A stretch of 64,000 nt of DNA from Kiritimatiellia bacterium (GCA_016295275.1 JAEDLN010000001.1:2165-66164); one strand, 5' to 3'. Positions 2,180 to 53,075 are shown, counted from the first letter of the stretch. Numbers and translations: made by a program. Notes: generated from the sequence alone by a model not told the origin.

Positions 2180-2302
2180 CTTGTCTTTTGCCATAGTCCG
2201 AATCGGTTCGGTTCCCGTGCCCCCCCTTCTCTGCCGCAATCGAACCGGAAAGCAAGCTCCAATCTCGCAGAAGAACGGTCCTTATGCTATCCTTTCCCCA
2301 TC

Positions 2303-2767: not shown

Positions 2768-2771
2768 CAAC

Positions 2772-17683: not shown

Positions 17684-17889
17684 GCCCCTTCTTCGCCATC
17701 CGCCACGCCCTCATACCCGCATACCATCGCCCCCCCTTTCCGTAACAAAATCGACGCGCTTGAGGGCAACCTTGACAGGTCCGCGGCTTTCCCCTAGATT
17801 CCACTCACCAAACTGCCGACCTCGAACCGGACGTGCACCGCGGCGTCTTTACTCTTCGATCAACCTCTCGCCAAGATATTTCCCGCCTC

Positions 17890-18585
17890 ATGTATACGCT
17901 CAGTCCGCAAACTAAAGCCGTTATTTTCGATCTGGACGACACGTTGTACGATTTCAAGCATTGCCACAATCGCGTCATGCCGCTTCTGGAAAACTATGCC
18001 CGGGAAAAACTGGGGATGGAACCGGTACTGTTTCGGACGGAACATAAGAAAATGCTGGAATGGCAGTTCGATGCCCTGCCAAAACAAGCGGGCTGCCATA
18101 GCCGGGCCATGCGCTTCCAACTTTTGCTGGAATCGCACGGGTTGCCGTTGCGCCATGCGAACGCGCTCGCCGAGCTCTACTGGAACTCGATGCTTGACAT
18201 CATGACCCCGTTTCCGGGCTGCGTCGCTCTCTTTCAAAATCTTCGCAACCGGGGGATTTCCATCGGTATCGGTACCGATATGACGGCCGATTGGCAGCTC
18301 AAGAAACTGGAGCGGCTTGGGCTCCTCGATTACGTCTCCTTCTTTGTTTCCAGCGAAGAAACGGAAGAAAAGCCCGGAAGCGGCATGTTTTTGAGATGCG
18401 CCTCGAAAGCGGCTGTTCCAATCGATTGCTGTCTGTTTGTCGGAGATAACCCAAAGCGCGACATCAAAGGCGCCATTGACGTAGGCATGCCATTCCTCTG
18501 GATACAGCCGGATCCCGAAAAACGGGCGCTCCATCCGGATTATCCGTCGGTTGCTTCCATTGCTGAAATTCAATTTCCGTCATGA
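17890..18585 (+). CDS. HAD-superfamily hydrolase
   Basis: Motif I VIFDLDDTLYD and motif IV region LFVGDNPKRD. Start at MYTLSPQ. Confidence 0.75.
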   Translation: MYTLSPQTKAVIFDLDDTLYDFKHCHNRVMPLLENYAREKLGMEPVLFRTEHKKMLEWQFDALPKQAGCHSRAMRFQLLLESHGLPLRHANALAELYWNSMLDIMTPFPGCVALFQNLRNRGISIGIGTDMTADWQLKKLERLGLLDYVSFFVSSEETEEKPGSGMFLRCASKAAVPIDCCLFVGDNPKRDIKGAIDVGMPFLWIQPDPEKRALHPDYPSVASIAEIQFPS

Positions 18586-19783: not shown

Positions 19784-22129
19784 ATGCGTTTCAGCCATTT
19801 TTTCATGGCCGCGTTTGCGGGTATATCCATGTGTTGCATTGCCTTTTCCGCCCAAACGGTCGAAACGGAAGGGCAAACCGTTCTTGTCGCGGACTTGCAA
19901 ACGGACGGCGTAGCCGCTATCGGCGAAGGTGCAAGGCTTGACGCGGAAACCCCTTCCCATACTGAAACAAAGTCGTCCGAAGAGACACCCGCACCCGCAG
20001 AAGGCGAAAATGATATCGAAACGCAGATGATGTACCTTGTCCTCCAGCTCGGCGTGATTTTGTTCGCCGCAAAGCTCGGCGGTACGATTGCAACGCTTTG
20101 CAGACTTCCAAGCGTGATCGGAGAACTGGGAATCGGAATCATTATCGGACCGCACTTGCTTGGCTCGTTCCCGATTGGAACCATCTTTCCACAGGGAATT
20201 TTCCCCCTTAACCCGGACAGTTTCATCCCCGTTTCCAATGCGTTGTACGGGTTCTGCACATTGGCATCTATCATCCTGCTCTTCCTTTCCGGACTGGAAA
20301 CGAACTTCAAGATGTTCCTCCGATACGCATTTTCCGGCTCCATTGTCGGAATCGGAGGTGTCATTATCTCCTTCCTGGCCGGAGACCTCTGCGCTGTCTA
20401 CTTGTTGCCGAAGCTCATTTCCGCCTATCAGGGCGTAACACTTACCGTCGGCCACCCCGCGGCGCTGTTCATGGGCATTATCAGCACGGCTACGTCCGTC
20501 GGCATCACAGCGCGTATCCTTTCCGAACGAAAAGTCATCGATTCGCCGGAAGGAACGACAACCATGTCGGCTGCCGTCATCGATGACGTTCTCGGCATCA
20601 TCATTCTCGCCGTCGGCATGAGTGTCATCGCAGCCGAGAAAAACGGGAGCGGCGCCTCCGGAATCTCTTGGACGCATATCGGCGGCATTGCCCTCAAAGC
20701 CATTTGCATTTGGATTGGCGGTACGGCCGTCGGTCTCCTCGCCGCACGCAAGATTTCATTCCTTCTCAAATTCCTCAAAACCCCCGTTGCCATCGCAACG
20801 CTCGCGTTCGCGCTCGCCATCGCCGTATCCGGCATTTTCCAGATGATGGGTCTTTCCTTGATTATCGGCGCGTACGTCATGGGACTTGCGCTTTCCCGCA
20901 CCGATATCCGCTATCTGATCCAGGACAATCTCCAGCCGATCTATACGTTTCTCGTTCCGATCTTTTTCTGCGTCATGGGTATGATGGTGGATGTGCACGC
21001 CATTTCCAGCAAGCCCATCCTCATTTTCGGCTCCATCTATACGCTCCTGGCGATTCTTGCCAAGATCGTCGGCTGTGCAACCCCCGCCGCATTCTGCGGA
21101 TTCAATCTGCGCGGTTCCCTGCGCGTCGGCGTCGGAATGATTCCCCGTGGAGAGGTCGCCCTTATCATTGCCAGCATCGGTCTTTCCTCCGGCGTTCTGC
21201 AATCGGATATTTTCTCGATCTGCATCCTGATGACACTCGTCACGACGGTCGTCGCCCCTCCGGGCTTGATCGCCCTCTTTTCTTCTCCCAAGACCGGCCG
21301 CCGCCATCAGCCTACCGAAGAAAATACGTCCAAACCGTTTTCCTATCCGCTGCCAAATGCCGATACCGCATCTCTGCTGCTCGACAAACTGATTGATGTT
21401 TTCCGCAAAGAAGGATTCCAGACGGCGAATCTCAATCCGACCGAAAACATCTGGCAAATTATGCGGGAGGATGACGATATCATGGTTTCGTTGCACGACA
21501 ACGAACTTCGCTTCGAATGCAGCGATCGCGAAAAGCCTTTTTTGGTCGCAGCCCTTCGCGAGGTGACCCAAGATCTCCAAAATCTCGCGTCTTCGCTGAG
21601 TATCCCTTCCGCAGATTTGAACAAAATGATGCGGAACGTTTTCACGGCCGATCGTTCGACCCCAATCGAAACGACCGCCGACAACGATCTGCGCCGCTAC
21701 TTGAAAAACTTCCTCTATCTGCCCAATGAACACGCCGGAAGCAAAGAGGAGGCAATCCGGAGAATTGTCCGGATTTTTTCGGAAAAGAATCTCTTGCAAG
21801 ATACGGATACCGCGGTTGATTTGATTCTCAAACGGGAAACCTCCATGTCCTCCGGCATCGAGCACGGAATCGCCATCCCGCACGCCCGTACCGATTTTGT
21901 CGAAGGCCTTATCGGCGCCGTAGCCGTGTTCCCCGACGGAATTCCGGAATACGAAACGCTCGATCATTCGAAGGTACGTATTGTCATCGTTTCGCTTACC
22001 TCGCGCTCGACCCATTCGCCGCAAATCCGTCTCCTCTCCTTCATTAGCCAGCTACTGAACGAGGAAGGACGCAAGCGACTTCTTGATGCAAAGTCCGAGG
22101 AGGAAATGCGGAAAATCTTTCTTTCCTAG
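19784..22129 (+). CDS. Cation:proton antiporter (CPA2/Kef-type Na+/H+ exchanger) fused to C-terminal PTS EIIA type-2 (PtsN-like) domain
   Basis: N-terminal signal-like segment plus acidic linker. About 400-aa multi-TM Na_H_Exchanger core. C-terminal GIEHGIAIPHARTDFVEGLIGAVAVFPDGI is a PTS_EIIA_2 signature with the phosphorylatable His. Confidence 0.75.
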   Translation: MRFSHFFMAAFAGISMCCIAFSAQTVETEGQTVLVADLQTDGVAAIGEGARLDAETPSHTETKSSEETPAPAEGENDIETQMMYLVLQLGVILFAAKLGGTIATLCRLPSVIGELGIGIIIGPHLLGSFPIGTIFPQGIFPLNPDSFIPVSNALYGFCTLASIILLFLSGLETNFKMFLRYAFSGSIVGIGGVIISFLAGDLCAVYLLPKLISAYQGVTLTVGHPAALFMGIISTATSVGITARILSERKVIDSPEGTTTMSAAVIDDVLGIIILAVGMSVIAAEKNGSGASGISWTHIGGIALKAICIWIGGTAVGLLAARKISFLLKFLKTPVAIATLAFALAIAVSGIFQMMGLSLIIGAYVMGLALSRTDIRYLIQDNLQPIYTFLVPIFFCVMGMMVDVHAISSKPILIFGSIYTLLAILAKIVGCATPAAFCGFNLRGSLRVGVGMIPRGEVALIIASIGLSSGVLQSDIFSICILMTLVTTVVAPPGLIALFSSPKTGRRHQPTEENTSKPFSYPLPNADTASLLLDKLIDVFRKEGFQTANLNPTENIWQIMREDDDIMVSLHDNELRFECSDREKPFLVAALREVTQDLQNLASSLSIPSADLNKMMRNVFTADRSTPIETTADNDLRRYLKNFLYLPNEHAGSKEEAIRRIVRIFSEKNLLQDTDTAVDLILKRETSMSSGIEHGIAIPHARTDFVEGLIGAVAVFPDGIPEYETLDHSKVRIVIVSLTSRSTHSPQIRLLSFISQLLNEEGRKRLLDAKSEEEMRKIFLS

Positions 22130-22162: not shown

Positions 22163-22191
22163 TTGACAAATTCCGTTTTTTCGCCTACAAT
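22163..22191 (+). promoter_or_regulatory. Consensus sigma70 promoter (TTGACA, 17-nt spacer, TACAAT) upstream of the SNF2 helicase gene
   Basis: ttgaca at 22163-22168, 17-nt spacer aattccgttttttcgcc, tacaat at 22186-22191, about 54 nt upstream of the ATG at 22245. Confidence 0.7.
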
Positions 22192-22244
22192 CCGTGAAGT
22201 TTTTGTCGTTTCAATTTGGCAAATAGGGCTTCTTTTCAAACTCC

Positions 22245-25200
22245 ATGATGTTTTGGTTCCGTAATCCGCTTTTGCAGAAATTTGATTTCACGCTCGAGAA
22301 TATCCGTTCTTGGGGTGGTGAACGTCAGTATCTGGAAGCGCTCAATCAGGTGACCAAAAAGAAGTCGGTACTCAATCCAACCTACAACGACAATATCGGA
22401 GAAGCCGATATCGAGCACGCAGGACATACGATCCATACACGCTTCCGCACATTTCCGGGACGTCGTTCGGTCGTGGAAAACCTCTGCCCGTGCGCCGCTT
22501 CCCAACGAGATGGACGAATCTGCGTCCACATGCTCGCCGCTGCAATCGCCCTGGAAGCCGCAGAACGAGAGCAACGTAAGGCAAAAACAATCGAAAACGC
22601 ACAGCGCGCCCTTGAAAAAATGGGCGTCCTTCCCAAGAGCCCGAAACCCGTTTCAAAGCAGGCTCCCTCCGCATCGGCCGGAATCCCCCCCGTTTCCGTC
22701 CGCACCGCCTCCCCTTCACCCGCCCCTTCCCAGAAAGCTCCACGATTGCGCTTCTATGTTCCGGATGACTGGGTAACGCGTTTCGACGCCGGAAAAATCC
22801 CTGTCGCACTTTCCATTAGTGCCGATAATACGCCGCACGTCTTTTCACTTAGCGATATTTCAAGCGGAAAACTGATTGACTCGAATACCGGACTTCCCGT
22901 TCCCTTCAATCCGTCCGATTCCGAAAGGAAACTCCTCTTTACGCTCGAACATATCCTCTATATTCCGCCGGATGCTGCAACGGGAAAAAATCTGAGCCTC
23001 GACTGCGGACAGTTTTTCAGTCTCCTGGAACGGCTTAGCGAAGTAAATGAGCCTTTCTACCCCGTCCATGCCGAAAAACCGGTCTATATCCGGACCAAGG
23101 AAAACGCCGTTCACAACATCCTGTATGTTTCCCTCCAGGAAGCAACCGGGCGGATCGAACTGGCGCTTCATATCCGTTTTCCCGGATTCCCGGAAGATAT
23201 TTTTCCTCGCTATCTCGTCTACCGGAATGCCAAAAACTGGAGAAACGATTGCGTCTACGCCTTTTTCAACGGGGTCCTTTGGCCAATCCACACGCCGATC
23301 CCTTTTACATACGGAGAAGTGTACCGAAACCGTACGTACCTTCTCCGGCGCGATGAGACAATCGATTTCATCCAGCGGGAAATTCGCGGAAAATTGCCTT
23401 GCTCTGGAAATCTGATCCCCTTGCGGGATATTCTCCGGGAGGATTTCAATTCAACCGTCGATTTCTCCCTCTTTACCACAAAGCCCGGAAGACCCCGCTT
23501 CTCTCTTGATGTTAACGGTTCGAGAGCCTCCTTGTCGATCTCCCTGAAAGCAAGCTACTCCGATATTGCCGTGAATTTCGGAAACGGGGACTTCAATGGC
23601 AAGTCGAACGGGCTGGAAACAAAAACCTGTATCACCATCGAAGTCGTCGGAACGGAGTCGGGGCAGAACTTCACCATTCCCGATCCGAATGACAACTATA
23701 TCTACTACACCCGAAACCACGAAGCCGAACAAAAGGCGCTCAAACATCTTCGGGAAAAGATTTCCGCTCTTCTGCACATTCCTCAGAATGCGGAGACGTT
23801 GGATAATCGGGCCCTCAAGACGCTGACCATTGTCGGAGATGAAAATGTCTTGAATTTCCTCGCGACGACCGTTCCGACGCTTCGCAACAACGGATGGGAC
23901 GTTACGCTCTCGCAAGGTTTGACGGACTACCTCTCCTCTCTTGTGACCGTCGCGCCACGCGTGAAAATCGTTACCTTCCCGCGGCGGCATGGGTTCGAAA
24001 TCAGCTACACCCTGGCTTCATCCGACGGAAAGGTGGTTCTCCCCCCGGAAGTGTTCGCCAAAATCGATCCCGACAAATCCTACACCGAATTCAACGGACA
24101 TCAGATCGTGTTCGATCGGGAGGCCGTCCGCAATTTGGAAGAAATCATTCAAGAATGCGTCTCTTCCCGTAAAAAATCGGCAACCTGCGGCGAAGCGAGA
24201 TTCCTTCCGGATACGTATACCCATTTCATCAAGTCCACAATCGACGATCTCAGCGTCTCCGGCATTACGCTTGAATCGGCGCCCGAAAGCTGGTTGAAGG
24301 AAGCGGATATCTCGACGATTCGCAGCAATCTGGAACCGGTTCAGCTTGCGGAACCGGCACGATCCCTGTTGCGCCCCTATCAGGCAACCGGTGTGGCATG
24401 GCTTCGCTATTTGGAATCGAAGCATCAAGGCGGTTTGCTCGCCGATGAAATGGGTCTCGGCAAGACGTTTCAGACACTTAGCTGGCTTTCGATGCCACGT
24501 GTCTCCGGCAGTAAGGCTCCGGCACTCGTCATCTGCCCGACATCTATCGTCGACAACTGGAAACACGAATGCAACCACTACATCCCGGGTATGCGAGTCA
24601 TGACCATGACCGGAACCAAGCGACACGAGGATTTCGCAAAGATTCCCGATTGCAATCTGGTCATCACATCCTATGCCCTGATCCGTCGAGATGTCGAGGA
24701 ATACAAAAAATTCAACTTCTCCGCAATCGTGTTGGATGAAGCGCAAAATATCAAAAACCAAAACACACTGAACGCACGCTCCGTCAAACAACTCGATTCC
24801 AATGCCGCACGTCTCGTCTTGACCGGTACCCCCATCGAAAACTCCGTGGCGGATATCTGGTCGATTATGGATTTTCTGATGCCAGGTTATCTCGGACCCT
24901 ACGAGACTTTCCGCAGAACCTATGTCGAGCCCCTTCAAGGCGAAGAATCGGAATCCGAGTTGTTGCAGGAGCTTTGCCACCGGTTGCGCGAAAAAGTCGA
25001 TCCCTTTATGCTGCGGCGACTCAAAACGCTCGTTGCAAAGGATTTGCCGCCCGTTATCGAAAAAACCTCTTACTGCAAACTTTCGCCCGAACAGCGCATC
25101 GTCTACAACCGAATCCTGGAGGAGACGCGCTCCGCTGTTACAGGTTCCGTGCGAGAGGTCGGTTTCGAACGCTCGCGCATGATTATTCTGACCGCCCTCT

Positions 25201-25790
25201 TGCGCTTGCGTCAGCTTTGCTGCCATTTGGCTCTCATCGATCCCGAAGAGGCCGATAAGGCCACTACGCCTTCCGACAAAATGGAGCATCTGTTCCAGAT
25301 CCTGGATGATGCGCTCTCGGAAAACCATCGTGTGCTGATCTTCTCGCAATTCACCAAAATGCTCTCTATTTTGCGCGAAGAGTTCATCAAACGAAAAATC
25401 CGTTTCTGCTATCTCGACGGGACGATGCGCTCCGTCGAACGAAACGAACAGGTCGAACAGTTCAACTCCGACTCTTCCATCCCAATTTTTCTGATTTCCA
25501 TCAAGGCCGGTGGAACAGGTCTCAATTTGACCGGGGCAGATGAAGTCATTCTCTACGACCCATGGTGGACCCCTGCGGTTGAAGAACAGGCAATCGCCCG
25601 TGCCCATCGTATCGGACAGCAAAATACCGTATACTCCGTACGGGTCATCGCGCAAGACACAATCGAGGAACGCGTTCTTCACCTGCAACGGCGAAAACGC
25701 GCAATCATCAATGCGACCATCAAGAGCGATGACGAAATGATGTCCAAGCTGACTTGGGCCGATGTCAAGAAGTTGCTGGATATTGAGTAA
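22245..25790 (+). CDS. SNF2-family helicase/ATPase with N-terminal SWIM zinc finger (paralog 1)
   Basis: SWIM CPCAASQRDGRICVHMLAAAIAL. SNF2 motifs LLADEMGLGKTFQ, VLDEAQNIKN, LTGTPIENSVADIWSIMDFLMPGYLG, and helicase C motifs LISIKAGGTGLNLTGADEVILYDPWWTPAVEEQAIARAHRIGQ. Confidence 0.9.
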   Translation: MMFWFRNPLLQKFDFTLENIRSWGGERQYLEALNQVTKKKSVLNPTYNDNIGEADIEHAGHTIHTRFRTFPGRRSVVENLCPCAASQRDGRICVHMLAAAIALEAAEREQRKAKTIENAQRALEKMGVLPKSPKPVSKQAPSASAGIPPVSVRTASPSPAPSQKAPRLRFYVPDDWVTRFDAGKIPVALSISADNTPHVFSLSDISSGKLIDSNTGLPVPFNPSDSERKLLFTLEHILYIPPDAATGKNLSLDCGQFFSLLERLSEVNEPFYPVHAEKPVYIRTKENAVHNILYVSLQEATGRIELALHIRFPGFPEDIFPRYLVYRNAKNWRNDCVYAFFNGVLWPIHTPIPFTYGEVYRNRTYLLRRDETIDFIQREIRGKLPCSGNLIPLRDILREDFNSTVDFSLFTTKPGRPRFSLDVNGSRASLSISLKASYSDIAVNFGNGDFNGKSNGLETKTCITIEVVGTESGQNFTIPDPNDNYIYYTRNHEAEQKALKHLREKISALLHIPQNAETLDNRALKTLTIVGDENVLNFLATTVPTLRNNGWDVTLSQGLTDYLSSLVTVAPRVKIVTFPRRHGFEISYTLASSDGKVVLPPEVFAKIDPDKSYTEFNGHQIVFDREAVRNLEEIIQECVSSRKKSATCGEARFLPDTYTHFIKSTIDDLSVSGITLESAPESWLKEADISTIRSNLEPVQLAEPARSLLRPYQATGVAWLRYLESKHQGGLLADEMGLGKTFQTLSWLSMPRVSGSKAPALVICPTSIVDNWKHECNHYIPGMRVMTMTGTKRHEDFAKIPDCNLVITSYALIRRDVEEYKKFNFSAIVLDEAQNIKNQNTLNARSVKQLDSNAARLVLTGTPIENSVADIWSIMDFLMPGYLGPYETFRRTYVEPLQGEESESELLQELCHRLREKVDPFMLRRLKTLVAKDLPPVIEKTSYCKLSPEQRIVYNRILEETRSAVTGSVREVGFERSRMIILTALLRLRQLCCHLALIDPEEADKATTPSDKMEHLFQILDDALSENHRVLIFSQFTKMLSILREEFIKRKIRFCYLDGTMRSVERNEQVEQFNSDSSIPIFLISIKAGGTGLNLTGADEVILYDPWWTPAVEEQAIARAHRIGQQNTVYSVRVIAQDTIEERVLHLQRRKRAIINATIKSDDEMMSKLTWADVKKLLDIE

Positions 25791-26091
25791 GGGGTTGCCG
25801 CTTTGACGATCCGTCTCACTCGGTTGTTCCCCGGAACAATCTTGACTGCTTGATGTGGAAAGGACGATCCGCTTGATGACCGGTACTTTTCAAAAAAGGC
25901 TCCTTTCCAAATCCATTCGACCGTTCCTCGGTTGCAAAACATGGTTTCCCAATTTCCGTGTGGGCTGCAAATCCTTTCGACGCACGGTTTCTCCTTCGGA
26001 ATCCCTTTTTCTTTCCTAGCTCCGTTTTCCGGTTCTCTTCTGTCCGTTTCTCCCGAACTGCCAGTACATCCGGTCGCGATACTCTTCTTCC

Positions 26092-29000
26092 ATGGACATT
26101 TCCCATTCCAATTCTCGCCCTTTGCGCGAAACGTCGATCCCCTTTTCGTATACGGTCAACGATATCCGTTCCTGGGGCGATCAGGCCTCCTTCAATGCCG
26201 CCTTGCGAGCCGTCAATCGTGGGGATGTTCTCAATGCCGATTACGATGCAAAAACGCAAATCGGGTCCGGCGTCGTCAGTGCAAACGGAAACCTCGTAAA
26301 CGCTTCCTTCCAGCTCTGCAACTGGAAATACTGCAATGCCGAAAACCGGTGTTCGTGCCAAATCGGACAGACCGGTTCCATGTGCTTTCACACCCTGGCA
26401 ATTGCCATCAAGCTCGCTCGCTTGTACGAGGCGAAGACGGGCGCCGACCGGAAATCGGCAGATTCGAATCTCCCCACCGAAATCGATCTCCCAAAGCAGA
26501 CCGTCCTTCGCGATGCGAAAAACGGCGAACCGGTTTCCCTCGTCTTTGTCCTTCCGAAAAATTGGACAGAGCTCATGAACCAGCACAAGAGCGTATTGCT
26601 GGGCATCTACCTGACCCCACGACTCGCCTCCCCGAAATCATCCCCCACCGCTATTATCCATATCGAAAAGGCTATCCTCCTGAAACGCTCCCTGAGCCTC
26701 GAACATGAGGACGATATGATGCTGATGCTGCTCGAGGAAATGGCGGAAGGATCCCTGACAGGGGAATGTCGCGTAAACCCGTCTTCCCTCCTTTGGCTTT
26801 TGGACTACCTCGGGAATCTCGGACGCCCTATTTATCAAAGCGATATCATCGATTCGCCGACCAAGAACAAGGAGCGTCATGTCGTGAAATCGATCCAAGA
26901 GACGCTCCCGATTCGGATTCGGACGGAGGCGGATGCCTGCGAAACCTTTATTCGCTGCTCCTTCAACCCGTGTCTTCGTTCGATTGACGCATCAATCCAT
27001 GCCGATATTCCAGGCGTAATCCCGCCTCAAGAGATAACCTATATCGTGCCGGGCGGCGAAAAGGGATATGCCATAATCAACTCGACGGTCGAAACATCCG
27101 GCTATGCTTTCGAATTGATTCCTCTCAAAAGCATCCTGCCGATCGTTTTCCGGCAATTTTACATCAAGCCGATCCGCATCGATCCGTTGCACGTATACCG
27201 CTTCCTCAAATACGAACGCAATACCTTGCAAAACAGCCTCCCCGTCAAAATCGATCCGGAGGTCGAGTCGCTTTCCTGGACGCCGCTTTCTCCGCAATTC
27301 CTTCTAGAGGTCTCCATTCCGGAGCAGGAAACGCCTCCCAAAAACGGATGGCGTCCCTCTCCGGGAAATTTGCCCAATCGACTGTCCATCTGTCTGAAGG
27401 CATGCTACGAACCGTTTCCCGGAAAACAGCCAGCGCAAACCGTTGTTGCAGGATTCCCCGGATGCTATTTCTCCATTCCCGATCTGAACGATTCCTACCA
27501 CTATTTCATTCGGGATCTGGCCGCAGAGCAAAAGGGTCTGGAAATGCTCCGTTCTTTCGAAATCCCGGGGCAAACGGAAGATCATGCGGCAACACTCCTT
27601 CTGGAAGGTCAAGACCAAGTCCTCCACTTCCTCTCGACAACCGCTCCTCAAATCGAAGCGCTTCTCGGTTGGTCTGTCGATTTCTCCCCTACCCCGGCTC
27701 TCCATAAACTCGTTCAATCGTTCGAACGAATCGGAATTGAAGTCAAAATCAACGAGAGCAACGGAGACCTGCCGTCCGTTTTCAGCTTGACGGTTGCCTA
27801 TAAAACCGTCGGGAGAAGGCATTACGTCCCTGAAAAGGAAATCTTGGAAGCCGCTGCGGAAAATCGAACCTACCTGATTGACTACGGGCCGCATAAAAAA
27901 GAGCCTCGGCAACGTCCGGTCCAACCTAAAATTCAAATTTTCAACTCCGGTATCATTCAAGCCTTTCGGGATCTGGAACAGGAATGCCACGCATTTCGAA
28001 ATCCCCTTGATAAAGCCCAGACCATGAGCAATGGTTTTGCGCCTTTTGTGGTCAATCGAATCCGTCGACTGAAAAGCTCCGGTGTAACATTCGACACAAA
28101 CGCCTCCGCTTGGGTGCAAAAATACCTTCGCCCGTTCGAAACCTCCGAATCCGCAAAGGATCGTCAGGAAATACGCCGTCTCCTCCCTCGTATCCTCCGT
28201 CCCTACCAGCTGGAAGGCGTCCTTTGGCTCCGTTGGCTTGAACGAAACAATTTCGGCGGTATTTTGGCAGACGAAATGGGGCTTGGAAAAACCCTGCAGG
28301 CGCTTGCATGGATTTCCATGCGGAGAATCTACGAACCGCAAACGAAACGTCCCGTTCTTGTCGTTTGCCCGACCTCTCTCGTTCGAAATTGGGAGAGCGA
28401 AGCGCATCGATTTGTACCCCAACTCAAAACCCTCGTCCTTTCCGGCACCGATCGACACGATGTTTTCCGGTTGATTCCGGAATGCGATCTCGTCATTACC
28501 TCCTATGCGCTTCTTCGCCGGGACGTCGAACTGTACAATACGGTCCTGTTCTCCGCCTGTCTGCTCGACGAAGCCCAGAATATCAAGAACCGAGATACCG
28601 ATAACGCCACGAGCGTAAAGCAAATTCGGGCCCGCACCCGTATCGCCATTACGGGTACGCCAATCGAAAATTCCCTTGCAGATCTTTGGTCCATCTTTGA
28701 TTTTCTCATGCCGGGATATCTCGGAACCTACGCCGAATTTCATACCCGCTTCGAAATTCCGATCGCTCTCCGCCATAGCGAGGCCGCAAATCCTACCGAT
28801 ATCCGGGAAGCCGATATTCTCCTTTCCAAACTTCGGGATAAAACCGCCCCCTTCCTTCTCCGCCGTCTCAAAACAACCGTCGCTCAAGACCTTCCGGAAA
28901 AACTGGAACAAATCGTGCCGACCGAAATGACCGCCGATCAGCAAAAGGTCTATCGTTCGCTACAGGAACAGATCGGACGCAAAATTTCCGACTCCGTTTC

Positions 29001-29733
29001 CGAAAACGGCTTCGAACGCTCTCGCATGCTCATCCTTTCCGGTCTCTTGCGCCTCCGTCAGGCTGCCTGCCATCTTTCGCTGCTCGGCAATCTCAATCCG
29101 TATCCGAATTCGGAACATCCGTCCGGAAAACTTTCCCAGATGCTCTCGATTTTGGAAAATACCATCGCAAGCGGCCATCGCGTGCTCATTTTCTCCCAAT
29201 TCGTCGAGATGCTGCATCTGATTCGAGACGCATTGGACAAACGCGCAATCAAATACTGCTATCTGGATGGAACTTCCAAGGAAGAGGAACGTCTGGAGAA
29301 TGTTCGCCAGTTCAACTTTAACCACAAAATTCCCGTCTTTCTGATCTCTTTGAAGGCCGGCGGAACGGGACTTACGCTTACCGGGGCCGATGAAGTCATT
29401 CTCTTCGATCCTTGGTGGAATCCCGCCGCCGAACAACAGGCGATCGATCGAACCCATCGTATCGGTCAAACCCGTACCGTCCACGCAATTCGCCTCATCA
29501 CTCCCGGTACGGTCGAAGAAAAGGTGCGTCTCATGCAACAACGGAAGAGCGAAATCATCGCAGCGTCCATCGGTACGCCGGACGAATCCGCTCCTTCCGA
29601 GTCGGAAGCCATCACGAAAACCGATACCGAGACCGTCAACTCCCTCACCTGGAGCGATGTCCAGACGCTCTTCGACCTCCCCGATGCCACGCCAAAACCG
29701 GCTCCCGAATCCCACGCCGATCCGCACGCCTGA
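26092..29733 (+). CDS. SNF2-family helicase/ATPase with N-terminal SWIM zinc finger (paralog 2)
   Basis: SWIM CSCQIGQTGSMCFHTLAIAIKL. SNF2 motifs ILADEMGLGKTLQ, LLDEAQNIKN, ITGTPIENSLADLWSIFDFLMPGYLG, LISLKAGGTGLTLTGADEVILFDPWWNPAAEQQAIDRTHRIGQ. Confidence 0.9.
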   Translation: MDISHSNSRPLRETSIPFSYTVNDIRSWGDQASFNAALRAVNRGDVLNADYDAKTQIGSGVVSANGNLVNASFQLCNWKYCNAENRCSCQIGQTGSMCFHTLAIAIKLARLYEAKTGADRKSADSNLPTEIDLPKQTVLRDAKNGEPVSLVFVLPKNWTELMNQHKSVLLGIYLTPRLASPKSSPTAIIHIEKAILLKRSLSLEHEDDMMLMLLEEMAEGSLTGECRVNPSSLLWLLDYLGNLGRPIYQSDIIDSPTKNKERHVVKSIQETLPIRIRTEADACETFIRCSFNPCLRSIDASIHADIPGVIPPQEITYIVPGGEKGYAIINSTVETSGYAFELIPLKSILPIVFRQFYIKPIRIDPLHVYRFLKYERNTLQNSLPVKIDPEVESLSWTPLSPQFLLEVSIPEQETPPKNGWRPSPGNLPNRLSICLKACYEPFPGKQPAQTVVAGFPGCYFSIPDLNDSYHYFIRDLAAEQKGLEMLRSFEIPGQTEDHAATLLLEGQDQVLHFLSTTAPQIEALLGWSVDFSPTPALHKLVQSFERIGIEVKINESNGDLPSVFSLTVAYKTVGRRHYVPEKEILEAAAENRTYLIDYGPHKKEPRQRPVQPKIQIFNSGIIQAFRDLEQECHAFRNPLDKAQTMSNGFAPFVVNRIRRLKSSGVTFDTNASAWVQKYLRPFETSESAKDRQEIRRLLPRILRPYQLEGVLWLRWLERNNFGGILADEMGLGKTLQALAWISMRRIYEPQTKRPVLVVCPTSLVRNWESEAHRFVPQLKTLVLSGTDRHDVFRLIPECDLVITSYALLRRDVELYNTVLFSACLLDEAQNIKNRDTDNATSVKQIRARTRIAITGTPIENSLADLWSIFDFLMPGYLGTYAEFHTRFEIPIALRHSEAANPTDIREADILLSKLRDKTAPFLLRRLKTTVAQDLPEKLEQIVPTEMTADQQKVYRSLQEQIGRKISDSVSENGFERSRMLILSGLLRLRQAACHLSLLGNLNPYPNSEHPSGKLSQMLSILENTIASGHRVLIFSQFVEMLHLIRDALDKRAIKYCYLDGTSKEEERLENVRQFNFNHKIPVFLISLKAGGTGLTLTGADEVILFDPWWNPAAEQQAIDRTHRIGQTRTVHAIRLITPGTVEEKVRLMQQRKSEIIAASIGTPDESAPSESEAITKTDTETVNSLTWSDVQTLFDLPDATPKPAPESHADPHA

Positions 29734-32276: not shown

Positions 32277-33740
32277 GTTTGTTTTTCTTCAAGTTTTTAC
32301 GGTTCGAAATGGAAAAGGGTCGTAGGATCATGCCATTCGCCGATTCGAATATCGCCGAATTCAACGATTTCGGCAAGGCGGAACGCAGTTTCTTCACGAC
32401 TGTCCATGTTGAACTGTTCGTTAGGCTTACAGGTTCCGGATGTGTAGTGGAACGGCTTGCCCGAGTTCTCCAAAAGAACCTTCCTCTCCCAAGGTCGGAA
32501 TGTGCGAGCATCTCGCCAATCCCCGTCATGTGAAGGAAACCTTGATCGAAGAAGAATGGAACCAAGTATACCGAAGATAGCCTTCGGTTCATAGCCTATT
32601 TTTCGATGTAGTGCCGAGAAGAGCCGAACGGTCAGCCTTCGGAAAGAAACTGACGCATCGGGATTGACGAAAACGGCGCTCGTGACTTTGTGATAACGAA
32701 GGCAAAATAGTGTGGGACGATTGTAACCTTGTTTTGGCAATGGAAAAGAAGCAGCCGAAAGTCCCCTGCTTGTTTTCCCCTCTCGCAGGAGACCCCTGCC
32801 GACATTGCTCGAAGAGGGGCTTTACGCTCTGATAGAGGCGCAAAGGAATGCATTTTCATCGGCTTACGGACATGAAAACAAAGTGAAACTCGTCCTGCCG
32901 ATTCTAATGGTCGGGAGAATTTGAAGCGTTGGCAAATGCGCACAGAACCGAATCATGACTGCGTATGAATAGATGCCCGCGGGCGAAAAGAATGACTGGC
33001 AACCATGTATCCGCCATTTGCAAAAACGCGCTAAAGAAGACGACGGTGAGATTCATTGGTCGGACGAAACCGCCGTCATGAATGCAGACGGTTGCGGCAG
33101 ATCGTACGCGCCCTCGCGACAAGTCTCCGCCGACCAAGACTCGTCGGCTTTATCTATGAATCTCTCCGTCGACAATCAGATGGAATGCTGTTGGATGATC
33201 GTCACCGAGACCTTTATTGCGAACGGACTGATCGAGTGCATGGGAAGCATCGAGAAGGACGTCGAGCGCAAGATTTTCCTTGTGATGGATAACCTCAAGG
33301 TTCATCATAGCAAACCGATAAACGAATGGTTCGAAACCCATGAACGGAGCCGGACGAGCGTCTATGCCAAATCTCACGCTCGCGATAACGACGACTGTTC
33401 CAAAGCGTGCGCAAAAAAGCACGCAAAGAAAAAGGAACGTCCGGCTACGGTGAAAGCTCCGCCAGACGGATAAAGTCAGTTTTCCAAAGACAGGCATGTT
33501 CGCCATGCCGCAGAATCAATGGGACTTATTGCCGGAGCAATATTGCATGGTTCTCATCCCGACTCGCGCCCGACCGTCATCCCATATGATGATACCGCAC
33601 GGCAGCTCGTGCCACCGCAGGTTACGCCCTTTTCCCTTTGACGCGTTTTCTGCGAAAAGACCTTGCGTGGACGAATGGAAAGGAGTATACTTAATGGCAC
33701 TAAAGTATTTTCGATCCTGACTGGGTCGTTTGGGAGTTTT
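32277..33740. other. Low-GC (AT-enriched) non-coding / decayed segment between GH112 and atpB
   Basis: Visibly lower GC than the flanks. Contains only unrecognisable ORFs and a transposase fragment. Confidence 0.5.
32973..33473 (+). mobile_element. IS630/Tc1-mariner family transposase remnant (C-terminal DDE domain fragment, no N-terminal HTH)
   Basis: IHWSDETAVMNADGCGRS ... FLVMDNLKVHHSKPINEWFETHE matches the IS630 DDE-domain pattern (I.F.DE...; ..DN...HKS..v.eWle). Only 166 aa with no HTH region, so likely a pseudogene. Confidence 0.5.
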
Positions 33741-33743
33741 TCT

Positions 33744-35045
33744 ATGACGAATACCGTTTACCATCGCATTGACGCTAGCTCCGGAAGTGTCGTAAGCCTT
33801 CGCGCCGAAGGTGTCAAATATCACGAATTGGCCGAAATCTCCTCTCGCGGAATCACTTCGTTGGCGCAGGTCATCAAGGTGGACGGCGACCATGTTTCCT
33901 TGCAAGTCTTCGCCGGTGCCCGCGGTATCGCAACCGACGCCCGTGTCCGTTTTCTCGGGCATTCCATGCAGGTTTCGGCAACCGACAACTTGCTCGGCCG
34001 CGTTTTCGACGGCGGCGGAAATCCCCGCGACAAAGGGCCTGCCCTTCAGGAAAATCTCATCGAAATCGGCGGTCCCTCCGTCAACCCCGCTAAGCGCATC
34101 ATTCCTCGTAACATGGTGCGTACGGGTATCCCGATGATCGATGTCTTCAACTCGCTGGTCGAAAGCCAAAAGCTCCCGATCTTCGCAAAGTCCGGCGAAC
34201 CCTACAACGAACTGCTTGCCCGAATCGCCCTCCAAGCGGAAACCGATGTCATCATCCTAGGCGGAATGGGGCTCAAGAATGATGACTACCTCTACTTCCG
34301 CGATACGCTCGACGCCTCCGGCGCCCTTTCCCGTACCGTCATGTTCGTCCATACGGCCGCCGATCCCGTCGTCGAATGCATGCTCGTTCCCGATCTGTCG
34401 CTCGCCGTCGCCGAACAATTCGCACTCAAAGGAAAGAAGGTGCTCGTCCTCCTGACCGATATGACGTCTTTCGCAGACGCTCTCAAGGAGGTCGCAATCA
34501 CCATGGAGCAAATCCCATCCAACCGCGGATACCCGGGAGACCTTTACTCGCAGCTCGCTGCCCGCTACGAAAAGGCGGTCGACTTCGAAGGTGCCGGTTC
34601 CATTACCATTCTTGCCGTCACGACAATGCCCGGCGGCGATGTCACCCACCCCGTGCCCGACAACACCGGCTATATTACGGAAGGCCAGTTCTACCTCTCC
34701 TCCGGTCATATCGAGCCCTTCGGATCCCTTTCCCGTCTCAAACAGCAGGTCAACAAAACGTCCCGCGCGGACCATCGCACGATCATGGATACCATGATCC
34801 AGCTCTTTGCCCAATATCGCTCCACCCTCGAAAAACAGTCGATGGGCTTCCGCATGACGACATGGGATGAAAAGCTTCTCAAGTACGGTCACCGGTTCGA
34901 AACCGAAATGATGGATATCTCCGTCAATATTCCCCTCGAAAAAGCCCTTGATCTCGGATGGGAAATCCTCGCAGACTGTTTCGATCCTTCCGAAACCGGC
35001 ATCCGCTCCGAAATGATTGAAAAGTACTGGCCGAAAAAGGCGTAA
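33744..35045 (+). CDS. atpB: V-type ATP synthase subunit B
   Basis: Motifs of the A/V-type non-catalytic B subunit ([63 protein letters not shown]). GGGAG RBS 8 nt upstream of the ATG at 33744. Confidence 0.9.
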
Positions 35046-35093
35046 ACCCGCTTCTCGACTCGACGCGCATCCTGTTAAGAGAGGAGTCCGCCA

Positions 35094-35729
35094 ATGGCAA
35101 AAGTAAAACTGACAAAAACGGAGTTGAAGGCCCAGAAAGATGCATTGGCCCGTTACCAGCGATTCCTGCCCATGCTCCAACTCAAGAAATCCCAGCTTCA
35201 GATGGAACTGCAGGGGATGCGTGCCCGCGCCGATGAAATCACCCGGCAACAGGAGGCTCTCCGAAAGGAAATGAATGCTTGGATCGGTCTTTTTGCAGAC
35301 GAATCCGCCAAAATCCCCCTGACCGTCGAAAAGGTCCGCCTTCACAGCGGTAATATCGCCGGTGTCGTTATCCCGATCTTCGATGGTATTGACGTGCATC
35401 GGGAGGAAATCGATTTGTTTGAAACCCCCGCCTGGATCGATGACGCTGCAGATGCCGCAGAACGCTTGATTGCGTTGCGCGCCGAACGGGACGTCGCTCT
35501 CCGCCAGGTCGAATTGATCGCCGAGGAACTCCGTACCACGTCCCAGCGCGTGAATCTCTTCGAAAAAGTGAAAATTCCGGAGTGCAAGGAAAACATCCGA
35601 GTGATCAATGTCGCAATCGGAGATGAACAAACCTCCGCCGTCGCCCGCGGTAAAATCGCAAAGGGACGTGGAAAAACCTCTCCCGAAACAGACGCGCCGT
35701 CGTCTCTAGAAAAGGAGGTCTCCAAATGA
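35094..35729 (+). CDS. atpD: V-type ATP synthase subunit D
   Basis: MAKVKLTKTELKAQKDALARYQRFLPMLQLKKSQLQ is the canonical V-ATPase D N-terminus. About 211 aa. Confidence 0.85.
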   Translation: MAKVKLTKTELKAQKDALARYQRFLPMLQLKKSQLQMELQGMRARADEITRQQEALRKEMNAWIGLFADESAKIPLTVEKVRLHSGNIAGVVIPIFDGIDVHREEIDLFETPAWIDDAADAAERLIALRAERDVALRQVELIAEELRTTSQRVNLFEKVKIPECKENIRVINVAIGDEQTSAVARGKIAKGRGKTSPETDAPSSLEKEVSK

Positions 35730-37609
35730 TCGTCCCATTGAAACAAGTAACGCTTTTCTGCCTGGAAAAGGATAAAAACGAAACGCTCGCACGGCTCGCA
35801 GATTTGGGAATGATTCACATCCTGACCGACGCCGCTGCCCCCGAGAGCCCCGGACGGACTCGCGCACATGATGATGCCGCAGCCGCCGAACGCGCCGTAA
35901 ATGCCATCCGGAGCGCCGCAGCCTTGAAGCCCGGACAAAGCCACACGCTCGCCCTTCGAAAGATTTCCGTTCGCTTGAATGGCACTACACCGGAACCGGT
36001 TCGCCGCGCGAATGCGCTCGCCGATGCCTGTTGCGAAGCGTCCGAAGAAGCCGATGCTCTCGACAAAACAATTGCCCGATACGCCCCGTTCGGTTCCTTC
36101 GATCCCTCTCTCGCACAAAACATCAAAAAACAAATCGGCCGATCCGTCTTTCTCTTTTCCGCTCCGGAAAAAATGGTGATGCCGACAGTCGAAGACGGAT
36201 GGGTCGATATTCTCTCCGCCAATGATTCCGAAAAGACCGTTTATGGTGTTTTCATCGGAAAATCACTCCCCGAGGGACTCGATCCAATCGCTCTTCCCGT
36301 CGAACCGCTCGACCGGACTCGCTCCCGGTTCAAAGAGGCAATGTGCCGCAAAATCAAGGCCGTGGAAGCACTCGCCGCCATGAAAAGCGAGCTTCCCGTA
36401 ATTGAAGAGGCCGCCAAATCCGCCGCCGAGGCAAATTCATTTGCACTCGCGCTTGAGGCCATGAAGGACGTCGGACCTATCGCTCATATCACCGGATATG
36501 TGGATGCCCGTAAGTGCGAAAAACTGCTTGAAGAAGCACGGGAACAAGGATGGGGTATCTTTCTCCGCGATCCGCTTCCCGAAGAAAATCCGCCGACCCT
36601 GCTCGAACCGCCGAAAGTTTTTCGTCCGGTTCTGGCAATCTTCAAGGGGCTTGGAATCTTGCCTTGCTACACGGAAACCGATATTTCCGTTCCCTTTTAC
36701 GCGTTTTTCACCATCTTCTTCGCTATGCTGATCGGCGATGCCGGGTACGGGGCAATCATCTTGGCGCTTACGTTTTTCGGCCACCGCTCTCTTAAAAAGA
36801 AGTTCGGCGTTAATATCCCGGAACTCGCCAAAGGCGCACTTACGCTTTTCTATGTCTTCAGCTTCGCGACGATCGCCTACGGACTCCTTACCGCTACCAT
36901 CTTCGGCATGCCGCAGACATGGCTCCCTGCCTCCTATGCGGCTCTTCCCGTCGTGCAGTGGTTCGCCGATATGAACAATGTGATGTTGCTCTGCTTCCTG
37001 CTTGGTGCCATCCATTTGTCGATTGCGCGTCTCTGGAATGCGGTCTCGCTCTTTCCCGATACGAAATTTCTCGCCGAAATCGGTTGGACCGGAATCGTTT
37101 GGAGCATGTTCTTTATCATCTCTTCTCTCGTTGTCAAAGGATTCCAACAACCGGCCTGCACCATCCCGTTGCTGGTTGTTTCAATCCTCCTGACAGCCCT
37201 GTTCATGCTCCACAGGAATGAGCTCAAGTCAAACGGGGTCAGCCTGGGGATGCTGCCGCTCAATATCATCTCTTCCATGGGCGATATCATTTCCTATCTG
37301 CGCCTCTACGCCGTTGGTCTCGCTTCCGTCAAAGTCGCGGAAAACTTCGATACTATGGCCGCAGGTATCGAGCTTCCGATCTATGCAAAAATTCCCGTCA
37401 TGATCCTCATTCTTGCCGCCGGCCACGCCATCAACTTCGCAATGGGCGGACTTTCCATCCTCGTCCATGCCGTGCGATTGAATACGTTGGAATTCTCGGG
37501 CGCAAAAGGGGTAACATGGGGCGGATATGAATTCCAATCCTTTACGGCCAAGAAACCGGACTCCCTGCCGGAGCTGGAAAACGCTCTTCCGAACGGAAGC
37601 AAAGCATAA
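35726..37609 (+). CDS. atpI: V-type ATP synthase subunit I (a-subunit, 116 kDa type)
   Basis: ATGA overlap with atpD. N-terminal cytoplasmic domain plus C-terminal multi-TM domain, 627 aa, consistent with V-ATPase I. Confidence 0.8.
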   Translation: MIVPLKQVTLFCLEKDKNETLARLADLGMIHILTDAAAPESPGRTRAHDDAAAAERAVNAIRSAAALKPGQSHTLALRKISVRLNGTTPEPVRRANALADACCEASEEADALDKTIARYAPFGSFDPSLAQNIKKQIGRSVFLFSAPEKMVMPTVEDGWVDILSANDSEKTVYGVFIGKSLPEGLDPIALPVEPLDRTRSRFKEAMCRKIKAVEALAAMKSELPVIEEAAKSAAEANSFALALEAMKDVGPIAHITGYVDARKCEKLLEEAREQGWGIFLRDPLPEENPPTLLEPPKVFRPVLAIFKGLGILPCYTETDISVPFYAFFTIFFAMLIGDAGYGAIILALTFFGHRSLKKKFGVNIPELAKGALTLFYVFSFATIAYGLLTATIFGMPQTWLPASYAALPVVQWFADMNNVMLLCFLLGAIHLSIARLWNAVSLFPDTKFLAEIGWTGIVWSMFFIISSLVVKGFQQPACTIPLLVVSILLTALFMLHRNELKSNGVSLGMLPLNIISSMGDIISYLRLYAVGLASVKVAENFDTMAAGIELPIYAKIPVMILILAAGHAINFAMGGLSILVHAVRLNTLEFSGAKGVTWGGYEFQSFTAKKPDSLPELENALPNGSKA

Positions 37610-37655
37610 CCATTTCACTCTTTCATAAACAAATTCCACTAAGGAGTAACTAATC

Positions 37656-38138
37656 ATGAGTCCCGAAATCAACACCGCACTGGGTATCGCCGGTGCCGTT
37701 ATCGCCCTTGGTCTGAGTGCTTTCGGTTCCGCACTCGGAACCGGAAAAGCCGCAGCATCCGCTATCGGTGCGTGGAAAAAGTGCTTTGCACAAGGAAAGC
37801 AGGCCCCCTTCGTTTTGCTTTCCTATGTCGGCGCCCCCATTACCCAAACCCTCTACGGCATGATCCTCATGTTCAAGATGGTCGGTACCGCCCAGGATCC
37901 GAATGCGCTTCCCGGAACCGGTATCGCACTCGTCATCCTCGGACTCTTTGCCGGCATCGCCATCGGAACCTCGGCTTTCTTGCAGGGGCTCGCCGCCGCA
38001 GGTGCCGCCGATTCCCAGGCGGAAACTGGCAACGGTCTCGCCAACAACATGTCCGCCCTCGGCATCGTCGAAACGACTGCGATCTTCGCCATGGTCTTTA
38101 CCTATTTGGCCGTTGGCAATCTCGTTGCCGACGCATAA
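37656..38138 (+). CDS. atpK: V-type ATP synthase subunit K (proteolipid c-ring)
   Basis: 160 aa, four hydrophobic helices, Gly/Ala-rich ALGIAGAVIALGLSAFGSALGTG pattern. Confidence 0.8.
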   Translation: MSPEINTALGIAGAVIALGLSAFGSALGTGKAAASAIGAWKKCFAQGKQAPFVLLSYVGAPITQTLYGMILMFKMVGTAQDPNALPGTGIALVILGLFAGIAIGTSAFLQGLAAAGAADSQAETGNGLANNMSALGIVETTAIFAMVFTYLAVGNLVADA

Positions 38139-45498: not shown

Positions 45499-45532
45499 GT
45501 CCCTTCCCTTTTTTCAACTCCCCCTTCGTTCC

Positions 45533-47062
45533 ATGAGCACTACTTCCGTCTACCGCGAGATTGACGTCAAGACGCAGCATGCCATGTCCCTACGGGAAAC
45601 ATGGATTCTGTGCATCCGAAGCGTAAAACATCGACTCTTCCGCTCGATGCTGACCCTCGCCGTCGTCGTCCTTGCCGTCGCATTCTTCATGTTCCTCCTC
45701 TCGGAGAGCCTTTTCCAACGCTCCATCGCAAACGGCGTGTTGGAGGAAGAATCTTTCAACCGGCTCTCGCAGACCACCCTGACGCGGATGCTGTCCAATG
45801 CACCGGAATTGACAATGGTTCACCGACTGTCCAATACCGCCAACCTCCTTCAGTCCAAAAACGCGGAAAAGGTCGCCCAAGGGAAAATACAACTGGAAGA
45901 ATATGCCCGCGTCTCCGGTCTCGATGTCGCCACAATCGAGCAACTCGCGCAGACCGCCAGCCGGGAAGTGATGTATACCACTTGGTTGGCCGATCTTCCG
46001 ACCGGGCACCGCCTCAACCTCATCGGAAAACGATCCGGCCGGCAAGCCATCGAATACATTCTCGCCAACTCGCAGGATTTCCACGATCAGCTGAAGATCA
46101 AAATCGAAATCCGCATTCCCGGAAAAATTGATACCCTTGATGCTTTCCTTGCCGCATATCCGACATACAAATCGCAACTTGGCGAATTCAATAAACGCTG
46201 GAACAACGGTGTCTCAAAGGCCGTCGAACGCACGCTCGAACGTAAGGGCGACCAGAAGAACGTACCCGACAATCGCTGGATCGCTGCAGCCGATGCGCAG
46301 ACGATTGAGGCATGGCGTAAAGACCTTGCCGATATCGGCTTTCAGCTTACGCCGGAACTCGTGGCGACCATCCAATCGCAATTGAAAGACGCGAATATGT
46401 TCGCGGATCTCGTGGAAGCGCTCAACCGGAATACGTTCCGTGTCGAATGGGCCCGCGAGTTCAACGAAACCAAACGCTCCTCCGCCGAAGAGAAAATGCC
46501 GTTCCTGACCGATAAGCGGGCAATCAAACTGCTGAAGGATCAATTCACTCCGGAGGTGCTTGAAAACATGAAAACGCGTTATGAACGCGTGAGGCGACTT
46601 TCCCTTCTCAATAACCGCCTCGCAATCGTCACAAAGGCAACTCCGTCCTTTCTCGGACTTACCGGTCGGCAACTCTTTCTGCTCTTTATCTCCTTCCTCG
46701 TTTGCATGGTCGGCATCACCAATGCAATGCTTATGTCGATTACCGAACGGTATCGCGAAATTGCAACGATGAAATGTCTCGGCGCGACCGATTCCTATAT
46801 CCTTTCCCAATTCATGATGGAGGCTGCCTTGCAAGGTACCGCCGGCGGTATCATCGGCGTTGTGGTCGGTTTCATCATTTCAACCGTCCGTTGCACCATT
46901 CTCTATGGATCCTACCTTTGGACCTATTTCCCGGCGGTCGATTTGCTGTTTTCCGCAATCTTCTCCTTGGTTGCCGGCATCCTCCTTTCCGCCTTGGCTT
47001 CCGTCCAACCGTCCTGGTCCGCCTCTCGTATGGCGCCCATGGAAGCAATGAGGGTCGAATAA
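45533..47062 (+). CDS. MacB/FtsX-type ABC permease (N-terminal TM, ~330-aa extracytoplasmic domain, C-terminal FtsX 3-TM domain)
   Basis: C-terminal FtsX domain GITNAMLMSITERYREIATMKCLGATDSYILSQFMMEA...LASVQPSWSASRMAPMEAMRVE. Confidence 0.8.
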   Translation: MSTTSVYREIDVKTQHAMSLRETWILCIRSVKHRLFRSMLTLAVVVLAVAFFMFLLSESLFQRSIANGVLEEESFNRLSQTTLTRMLSNAPELTMVHRLSNTANLLQSKNAEKVAQGKIQLEEYARVSGLDVATIEQLAQTASREVMYTTWLADLPTGHRLNLIGKRSGRQAIEYILANSQDFHDQLKIKIEIRIPGKIDTLDAFLAAYPTYKSQLGEFNKRWNNGVSKAVERTLERKGDQKNVPDNRWIAAADAQTIEAWRKDLADIGFQLTPELVATIQSQLKDANMFADLVEALNRNTFRVEWAREFNETKRSSAEEKMPFLTDKRAIKLLKDQFTPEVLENMKTRYERVRRLSLLNNRLAIVTKATPSFLGLTGRQLFLLFISFLVCMVGITNAMLMSITERYREIATMKCLGATDSYILSQFMMEAALQGTAGGIIGVVVGFIISTVRCTILYGSYLWTYFPAVDLLFSAIFSLVAGILLSALASVQPSWSASRMAPMEAMRVE

Positions 47063-47065
47063 TTT

Positions 47066-52967: not shown

Positions 52968-53075
52968 TACCTCCGCTCCGGAACAAAATGGGGTTCCGTC
53001 CCTATGTTCCGGTATGTGACGGCGCACTTTTCCCTCTTTTCGTCTTTTCCATTTTCCCTACAGATATTCTTGACA

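Follow-up and report, generated by a model that had tools for sequence, protein, structure and literature searches.

Do two adjacent genes for SNF2-type ATPases, alike in architecture and read from the same strand of a bacterial chromosome, encode the halves of one machine, the core of a defence system, or two separate housekeeping proteins? The question is raised by a 64,000-nucleotide (nt) stretch of DNA from a Kiritimatiellia bacterium (GCA_016295275.1, JAEDLN010000001.1:2165-66164), referred to here as the window, in which positions 22,163 to 29,733 hold a promoter-like site followed by the genes A and B. An initial annotation, made from the sequence alone, had described the two as tandem paralogs of 1181 and 1213 amino acids (aa), each with an N-terminal SWIM zinc finger, an uncharacterised middle and a C-terminal SNF2 ATPase, and had pointed to a heterodimeric translocase and to defence systems as possible meanings. 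The observation itself is confirmed by the analysis described here, while its interpretation is partly supported. A and B are best explained as two anciently duplicated, subfunctionalised housekeeping ATPases of the SWIM + SNF2_assoc + SNF2 type, which would act as double-stranded DNA (dsDNA) translocases on the Kiritimatiellia chromosome; a probability of roughly 0.55 is attached to this reading. The locus is a fairly ordinary one: a duplicated form of a known, functionally unstudied family, and not a new defence system.

Two old paralogs of one architecture

An open reading frame (ORF) scan of the window recovers both genes exactly as first described (Table 1), and BLASTP aligns their products from end to end at 34% identity. 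Both carry the two Pfam domains of an SNF2 motor in their C-terminal part, namely SNF2-rel_dom (E = 1.6e-69 in A; E = 2.7e-69 in B, residues 705-996) and Helicase_C (E = 3.5e-26 in A; E = 4.6e-25 in B, residues 1016-1125). The Walker A residues G737, K740 and T741 (numbering of A, here and for the other motifs), motif II (DEAQ, 831-834), motif III (TGTP, 860-863) and residues Q1115, R1119, H1121, R1122, G1124 and Q1125 of motif VI are invariant in all 32 aligned family members, and B itself contains GLGKT, DEAQ, TGTP and QAIDRTHRIGQ. With both domains present and motifs I, II, III and VI intact, the two proteins can be assigned from sequence to the SNF2 family of superfamily 2 ATPases.

Near the N-terminus of each protein lies a predicted SWIM zinc finger, CxCxnCxH, whose cysteines and histidine are likewise invariant in 32 of 32 aligned sequences. 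The Pfam SWIM model scores A below its gathering cut-off (15.9 versus 19.6 bits, E = 0.0098) and has no match in B. The SWIM domain reportedly owes its name, given by Makarova, Aravind and Koonin in 2002, to the bacterial architecture that combines SWIM with SNF2.

The middle region, at first thought uncharacterised, can be classified as a divergent SNF2_assoc region (PF08455). The Pfam model detects SNF2_assoc directly in 3 of the 32 family members (best E = 9e-10), matches B weakly (E = 0.0094) and gives no direct match in A. Profile-profile comparison with SWIM/SNF2_assoc proteins by hhalign covers 1025 aligned columns at full length; restricted to the N-terminal 690 residues, which keeps the motor from contributing, it returns a probability of 98.9% (E = 1.2e-17, 531 columns) at about 12% identity. 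It is this alignment of the N-terminus that places A and B in the known bacterial SWIM + SNF2_assoc + SNF2 architecture, and SNF2_assoc membership is assigned at the profile level only. With the N-terminus as the query profile, 1.84 billion representatives yielded only 655 clusters at E of 1e-3 or below, and A and B form a divergent branch of the architecture.

SWIM + SNF2_assoc proteins have been catalogued for two decades, and the description of the tandem arrangement as an uncharacterised system needs qualification to that extent. What stands is that their function is unstudied: a literature search found nothing specific on characterised SWIM-SNF2 proteins, on PF08455, or on the families helic_SCO1167 and pilus_reg_Snf2 discussed below. 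The catalogued bacterial ATPases (SWIM, SNF2_assoc, SNF2-rel_dom and Helicase_C) have the same domain order over their full length and share the SWIM signature and the motor motifs with A and B. In contrast to these, A and B arose by an old duplication and lie side by side in some lineages.

An AlphaFold2 model of A, built from the 32-sequence alignment, has a mean predicted local distance difference test score (pLDDT) of 80.9, with values mostly of 80-93 in the middle region. It lays the protein out as a SWIM unit (about residues 17-125, with predicted strands at 42-79 and then a helix at 94-126), a disordered Pro/Ser-rich linker (125-161), alpha/beta domains at about 166-400, 401-525 and 526-700, and a two-lobed motor at the end. 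A separate model of residues 1-700 (pLDDT 78.2) matches no PDB or viral structure at E of at most 1e-3 in Foldseek, and the sequence profile of the N-terminal 700 aa finds nothing meaningful in the PDB, so that the N-terminal module is without a solved structural relative. For the SWIM part, the Foldseek matches are weak, with probabilities of 0.87 for ZSWIM8 and 0.84-0.98 for viral proteins, a few of which are SWIM-type, and all fall short of E 1e-3. Viral relatives of the N-terminus as a whole were rejected, the BFVD matches being weak, mostly SWIM-type, and likewise short of that threshold.

The age of the duplication was read from a distance-based tree, built by neighbour joining from 1058 columns with Kimura distances and 200 bootstrap replicates; few sequences represent the B clade in it. 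An A clade of window A plus 14 orthologs is recovered in 200/200 replicates; window B, P0108 and the B proteins of loci L002 and L007 form a B clade, also in 200/200; and the two clades are sisters in 197/200. The outgroup, a C clade of 1063-1071-aa proteins, has the same full support (200/200), and L010, the one C-clade locus examined, holds a single copy. Separate, fully supported A and B clades place the duplication before the radiation of the A clade. The A orthologs are 50-64% identical to window A, the copy at L001 being 93% identical. Besides the window, its close relatives L011 and L001 have a tandem A-then-B pair (that of L001 being partial), as do the deep relatives L002 (A 55-56% and B 41-44% identical to the window genes) and L007 (A 53-54%, B 39-42%). 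A recent, strain-specific duplication, which had been considered from the outset, is rejected by the tree together with the orthologous pairs in deep relatives.

Both paralogs are functional genes under strong purifying selection. Between the window and L011, the ratio of nonsynonymous to synonymous substitution rates (dN/dS) is 0.058 for A and 0.084 for B, values of the same order as in the transporter gene next to them (0.085).

Table 1. Positions of the features discussed, in window coordinates unless another locus is named
Feature	Position (strand)	Description	Basis
Upstream neighbour gene	19784-22129 (+)	Na+/H+ exchanger fused to PTS EIIA_2 domain, 781 aa	Pfam Na_H_Exchanger E 2.9e-52, PTS_EIIA_2 E 6.7e-24
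EIIA_2 transporter, L011	1683-4031
EIIA_2 transporter, L002	7760-9982
EIIA_2 transporter, L006	2667-5120
EIIA_2 transporter, L007	2039-4585
sigma70-type promoter-like site	22163-22191 (+)	-35 TTGACA 22163-22168, 17-nt spacer, -10 TACAAT 22186-22191	sequence read
Gene A	22245-25790 (+)	SWIM + SNF2_assoc-like + SNF2 ATPase, 1181 aa	ORF, Pfam, AlphaFold2 model
SWIM core of A (predicted)	22485-22529 (+)	C81-x-C83-x9-C93-x-H95	four residues invariant in 32 sequences
Middle region of A	22740-24344 (+)	aa 166-700; three predicted alpha/beta domains, divergent SNF2_assoc (PF08455)
SNF2 ATPase core of A	24345-25724 (+)	aa 701-1160	SNF2-rel_dom + Helicase_C, all motifs intact
A-B spacer	25791-26091 (+)	301 nt, pyrimidine-rich
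Gene B	26092-29733 (+)	paralogous SWIM + SNF2_assoc-like + SNF2 ATPase, 1213 aa	ORF, Pfam, B clade
SWIM core of B (predicted)	26350-26391 (+)	C87-x-C89-x8-C98-x-H100	invariant in 4 B-clade sequences; aligned with SWIM of A
SNF2 ATPase core of B	28195-29571 (+)	about aa 702-1160	SNF2-rel_dom + Helicase_C, all motifs intact

The motor, its N-terminal modules and a possible role

The best sequence match of the motor in the PDB is the Sulfolobus solfataricus SWI2/SNF2 core 1z63 (E = 4.3e-94; 35% identity in Foldseek), and the full-length A model retrieves the SNF2 motors of ZorD, Mot1, CSB, SsoRad54 and ISWI. The SSO1653/SsoRad54 core (1z63, 1z6a) is a dsDNA-stimulated ATPase and translocase (PMC1616948), and A and B are each predicted to be ATP-driven dsDNA translocases. 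The solved fragment is the motor only, and is therefore uninformative on the SWIM/SNF2_assoc N-terminus.

Divergence is spread unevenly along the proteins. Between A and B, the N-terminal modules (four well-aligned regions) are 18-36% identical versus 52-54% for the motor lobes, a pattern that fits a shared engine with diverged targeting modules. Because the modules differ so much more than the motors, A and B most likely address different targets or partners. B orthologs also diverge faster than A orthologs in all regions but the poorly aligned linker (44% versus 56% identity overall, window versus L002).

In the proposed mechanism, each conserved motor would be steered, and probably autoinhibited, by its own SWIM/SNF2_assoc module. 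The analogy is with RapA, in which an N-terminal domain autoinhibits the motor (PMC8501970), and with ZorD, whose N-terminal domain has the same effect (PMC11946911). The motor itself would push or strip proteins from DNA, such as nucleoid proteins or an RNA polymerase that has stalled, as may be supposed from RapA, Mot1, CSB, HepA and YwqA.

Among known bacterial proteins, E. coli RapA (HepA), a housekeeping SNF2 ATPase that serves RNA-polymerase recycling, is a plausible functional analogue, although the likeness does not extend to architecture. The NCBIfam RapA model NF003426 gives 45 bits for A and 31 for B, over the core only, against a cut-off of 576, and RapA is absent among the listed Foldseek matches to residues 1-700. 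A RapA-like N-terminus, which the initial annotation had foreseen as an alternative for the middle domains, is rejected by NCBIfam, by the N-terminus-only Foldseek comparison and by the PDB sequence-profile search. RapA is moreover a marginal member of the Snf2 family; the motor of A and B groups with canonical Snf2 and SSO1653. The B. subtilis Swi2/Snf2 ATPases HepA and YwqA are described as interacting with RNA polymerase and as poorly characterised (PMC7385302); YwqA has the SNF2 core in common with A and B. The best-scoring named bacterial families in NCBIfam are helic_SCO1167 (SCO1167/SCO6262; 397 bits for A and 369 for B, cut-off 1200) and pilus_reg_Snf2 (385 bits for each, cut-off 1100). 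Their alignments reach somewhat upstream of the motor, from aa 532-668, and A and B, which score roughly a third of the equivalog cut-offs, belong to neither family.

Several points weigh against the housekeeping reading in its present form. The target named above, whether RNA polymerase, a nucleoid protein or another, would be a guess by analogy, and the N-terminal 700 aa have no structural relative that would point to a partner. The block of EIIA-domain transporter, A and B is kept in several deep lineages, which could mean a tighter functional link. Finally, the spacer between A and B could contain an unrecognised promoter, which would weaken the case for co-transcription made below.

To our knowledge, bacterial SNF2 ATPases beyond RapA and the defence systems are almost unstudied. 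The interest of the pair lies in its being a natural experiment, with much the same motor joined to strongly diverged targeting modules and both copies under purifying selection, so that a comparison of A with B could reveal what the SWIM/SNF2_assoc module recognises. On present evidence no general picture is changed, and nothing shows the pair to be a novel machine.

One machine or two proteins

The heterodimer proposed in the initial annotation is the first of the alternatives. A and B would form a heteromeric two-motor translocase in which each paralog works only when bound to the other, the contact perhaps being made by the SWIM or SNF2_assoc modules. SWIM domains can serve for contacts between proteins; neither motor has lost a motif, and purifying selection acts on both; the A-then-B order is kept even where identity to the window genes has fallen to 53-56% for A and 39-44% for B; and the gaps of 0-6 nt between the genes in L002 and L007 suggest an operon. 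Yet tandem duplicates also remain adjacent by inertia, which makes adjacency alone a weak argument, and adjacency is not obligatory. Conservation of the pair in relatives extends to L011, L001, L002 and L007, whereas elsewhere A or B occurs alone ("alone" being judged at the locus). A-type genes stand amid housekeeping genes with no adjacent B at L003, L004/5 and L008, and none lies downstream of the A-type gene at L009, where the contig starts just upstream of A. Conversely, a B-type gene on the 127-kb contig of L012 has no second SNF2 ORF within 6 kb (its neighbours encode an amidase, a glycosyltransferase and MnmE), and another at L093 has no adjacent A; the B-type status of L012, L013, L092 and L093 comes from BLAST scores and identity to P0109, not from the tree.

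Of at least 549 matches in a metagenome scan, the best 80 were kept as further loci, and not one of these has two SNF2 ORFs; the outgroup at L010 is, as noted, single-copy. A contig scan with a single protein query returned one close locus; in word-based homolog searches with B-type queries, SNF2 cores saturated the output, and few B-clade proteins were among the matches. Since adjacency is not obligatory, the heteromer idea is somewhat weakened, and it is judged unlikely. Its stricter form is more doubtful still: a two-motor DNA translocase, obligately heteromeric and restricted to a Kiritimatiellia lineage, in which the diverged SWIM/SNF2_assoc modules would serve to pair the motors. Such paired motors would, for example, pull DNA from two sides or clear a roadblock cooperatively, and the pair might be regulated together with the preceding EIIA-domain transporter. 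If true, no paired SNF2 machine would have been described in bacteria before it.

A defence role has much less in its favour. The proposal is that the pair forms the core of an anti-phage or anti-plasmid system, with a motor like that of DISARM DrmD, Zorya ZorD or Dpd DpdE, and it draws on PADLOC matches of both proteins to the DpdE and ZorD models (best E = 6e-128 and 2e-130) and on the structural comparison. Type I ZorD (PDB 8qy7), with an N-terminal domain of about 500 aa and a C-terminal SNF2 motor, has a layout like that of A and B and is the top Foldseek match of the full-length A model (E = 1e-35, 975 columns). The ZorD-like N-terminus that this alignment suggests is nevertheless rejected: the N-terminus alone matches neither ZorD nor anything else, and the motor carries the alignment. 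The PADLOC matches, too, begin only at about aa 610-700 and cover the ATPase core alone (for DpdE, model PDLC02842 is aligned only at profile positions 692-1156 of 1176). NCBIfam scores fall far below their cut-offs, at 221 of 1500 bits for ZorD, 105 of 950 and 57 of 610 for DrmD, and 64 of 500 for DpdE.

The surroundings argue in the same direction. The other window ORFs with Pfam matches (48 ORFs scanned) are housekeeping or transport genes, among them those for LepA, TsaE, a release factor, pseudouridine synthases and ABC transporters, and housekeeping neighbours recur at 12 related loci. Those 48 ORFs include neither a DNA methyltransferase nor a restriction nuclease, nor any other gene of defence; methyltransferase and restriction nuclease genes are likewise missing from the related loci, and no zorABC (or MotAB-like), drmA, drmB, drmC or dpd gene occurs in either set. 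Genes A and B have a G+C content of 0.52-0.54, inside the 0.52-0.58 range of the window, and their synteny is stable and their selection strongly purifying. With motor-only matches and housekeeping neighbours, the suggested link to defence is dropped as highly improbable.

That one paralog, probably the faster-evolving B (44% versus 56% for A, as above), has become a degenerate or purely regulatory copy and is no longer a motor is scarcely credible, since the ATPase motifs and SWIM residues are intact in every B-clade sequence, its dN/dS is low at 0.084, and B-type genes persist alone in L012 and L093.

Transcription and surroundings of the pair

The promoter-like site lies 54 nt before the ATG of gene A. 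It had been called perfect; it is near-perfect, agreeing with the sigma70 consensus at 11 of 12 positions, because it reads TACAAT where the consensus has TATAAT. In other respects the claim holds: no other sequence in the 64 kb matches sigma70 as well as TTGACA-17-TACAAT, which is the sole window site with at most one mismatch, 0.06 being expected by chance. The one other site at 10/12 (TTGACA-17-TAGATT, 17772-17800, plus strand) lies in the gap 5' of a HAD-hydrolase gene (17833-18585). In L011 and L001, with a synonymous divergence from the window of about 0.7-0.8 in coding regions, neither hexamer nor the 17-nt distance between them changes, although the spacer sequence and the flanks do, which supports a real promoter, and the site is predicted to function as one. 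A dedicated promoter appears to be a trait of the window's own lineage, since the gaps of 18-22 nt between the preceding transporter gene and gene A in L002, L006 and L007 are too short to hold one.

In L011 and L001 the A-B spacer is of much the same length, with a column identity of about 79%. A sequence scan found in it no further promoter-like and no terminator-like site on the plus strand, and a structured RNA or riboswitch was rejected, there being no Rfam match and no stable fold (z +0.75). Given the conserved promoter hexamers and the lack of a plus-strand terminator-like site between the genes, the simplest reading is that A and B are probably transcribed together from the upstream promoter.

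The Na+/H+ exchanger-EIIA_2 gene beside gene A is treated here as genomic context only. It also lies immediately 5' of gene A in L011, L002 and L006, and at L007 the slot is occupied by an EIIA_2-CBS protein and a separate CitMHS transporter. An EIIA_2-domain transporter thus stands directly 5' of A at all tandem A-B loci, as well as at L006, where the contig ends after A; the lone-A loci are without such a neighbour. This could reflect inherited synteny or a regulatory link. At L003, a DUF6922/AbiEii toxin-antitoxin-like gene pair (2157-3046) sits two genes 5' of the lone A-type gene; it is the sole defence-like or toxin-antitoxin element near any family member, and is not conserved elsewhere.

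Downstream of the pair, on the opposite strand, is a lacto-N-biose phosphorylase gene. Between it and a run of V-type ATPase genes is a fragment of a DDE_3 transposase (166 aa, 32973-33473). The run itself (33663-38138) encodes a 460-aa ATP-synt_ab subunit and then D, I-like and c-like subunits; as no catalytic subunit of about 580 aa adjoins it, the operon may be rearranged or split. GC skew is below zero in 31 of 32 2-kb bins of the window (lowest -0.24; one bin +0.003) and nearly all genes are on the plus strand, so that the coding strand is consistently C-rich. Farther along, at 43294-55082, lies a group of large membrane proteins: a DUF6785/DUF6784 protein (734 aa), an FtsX-domain protein (509 aa), an OPT-family transporter, and a 1736-aa protein whose one FtsX domain lies close to the C-terminus.

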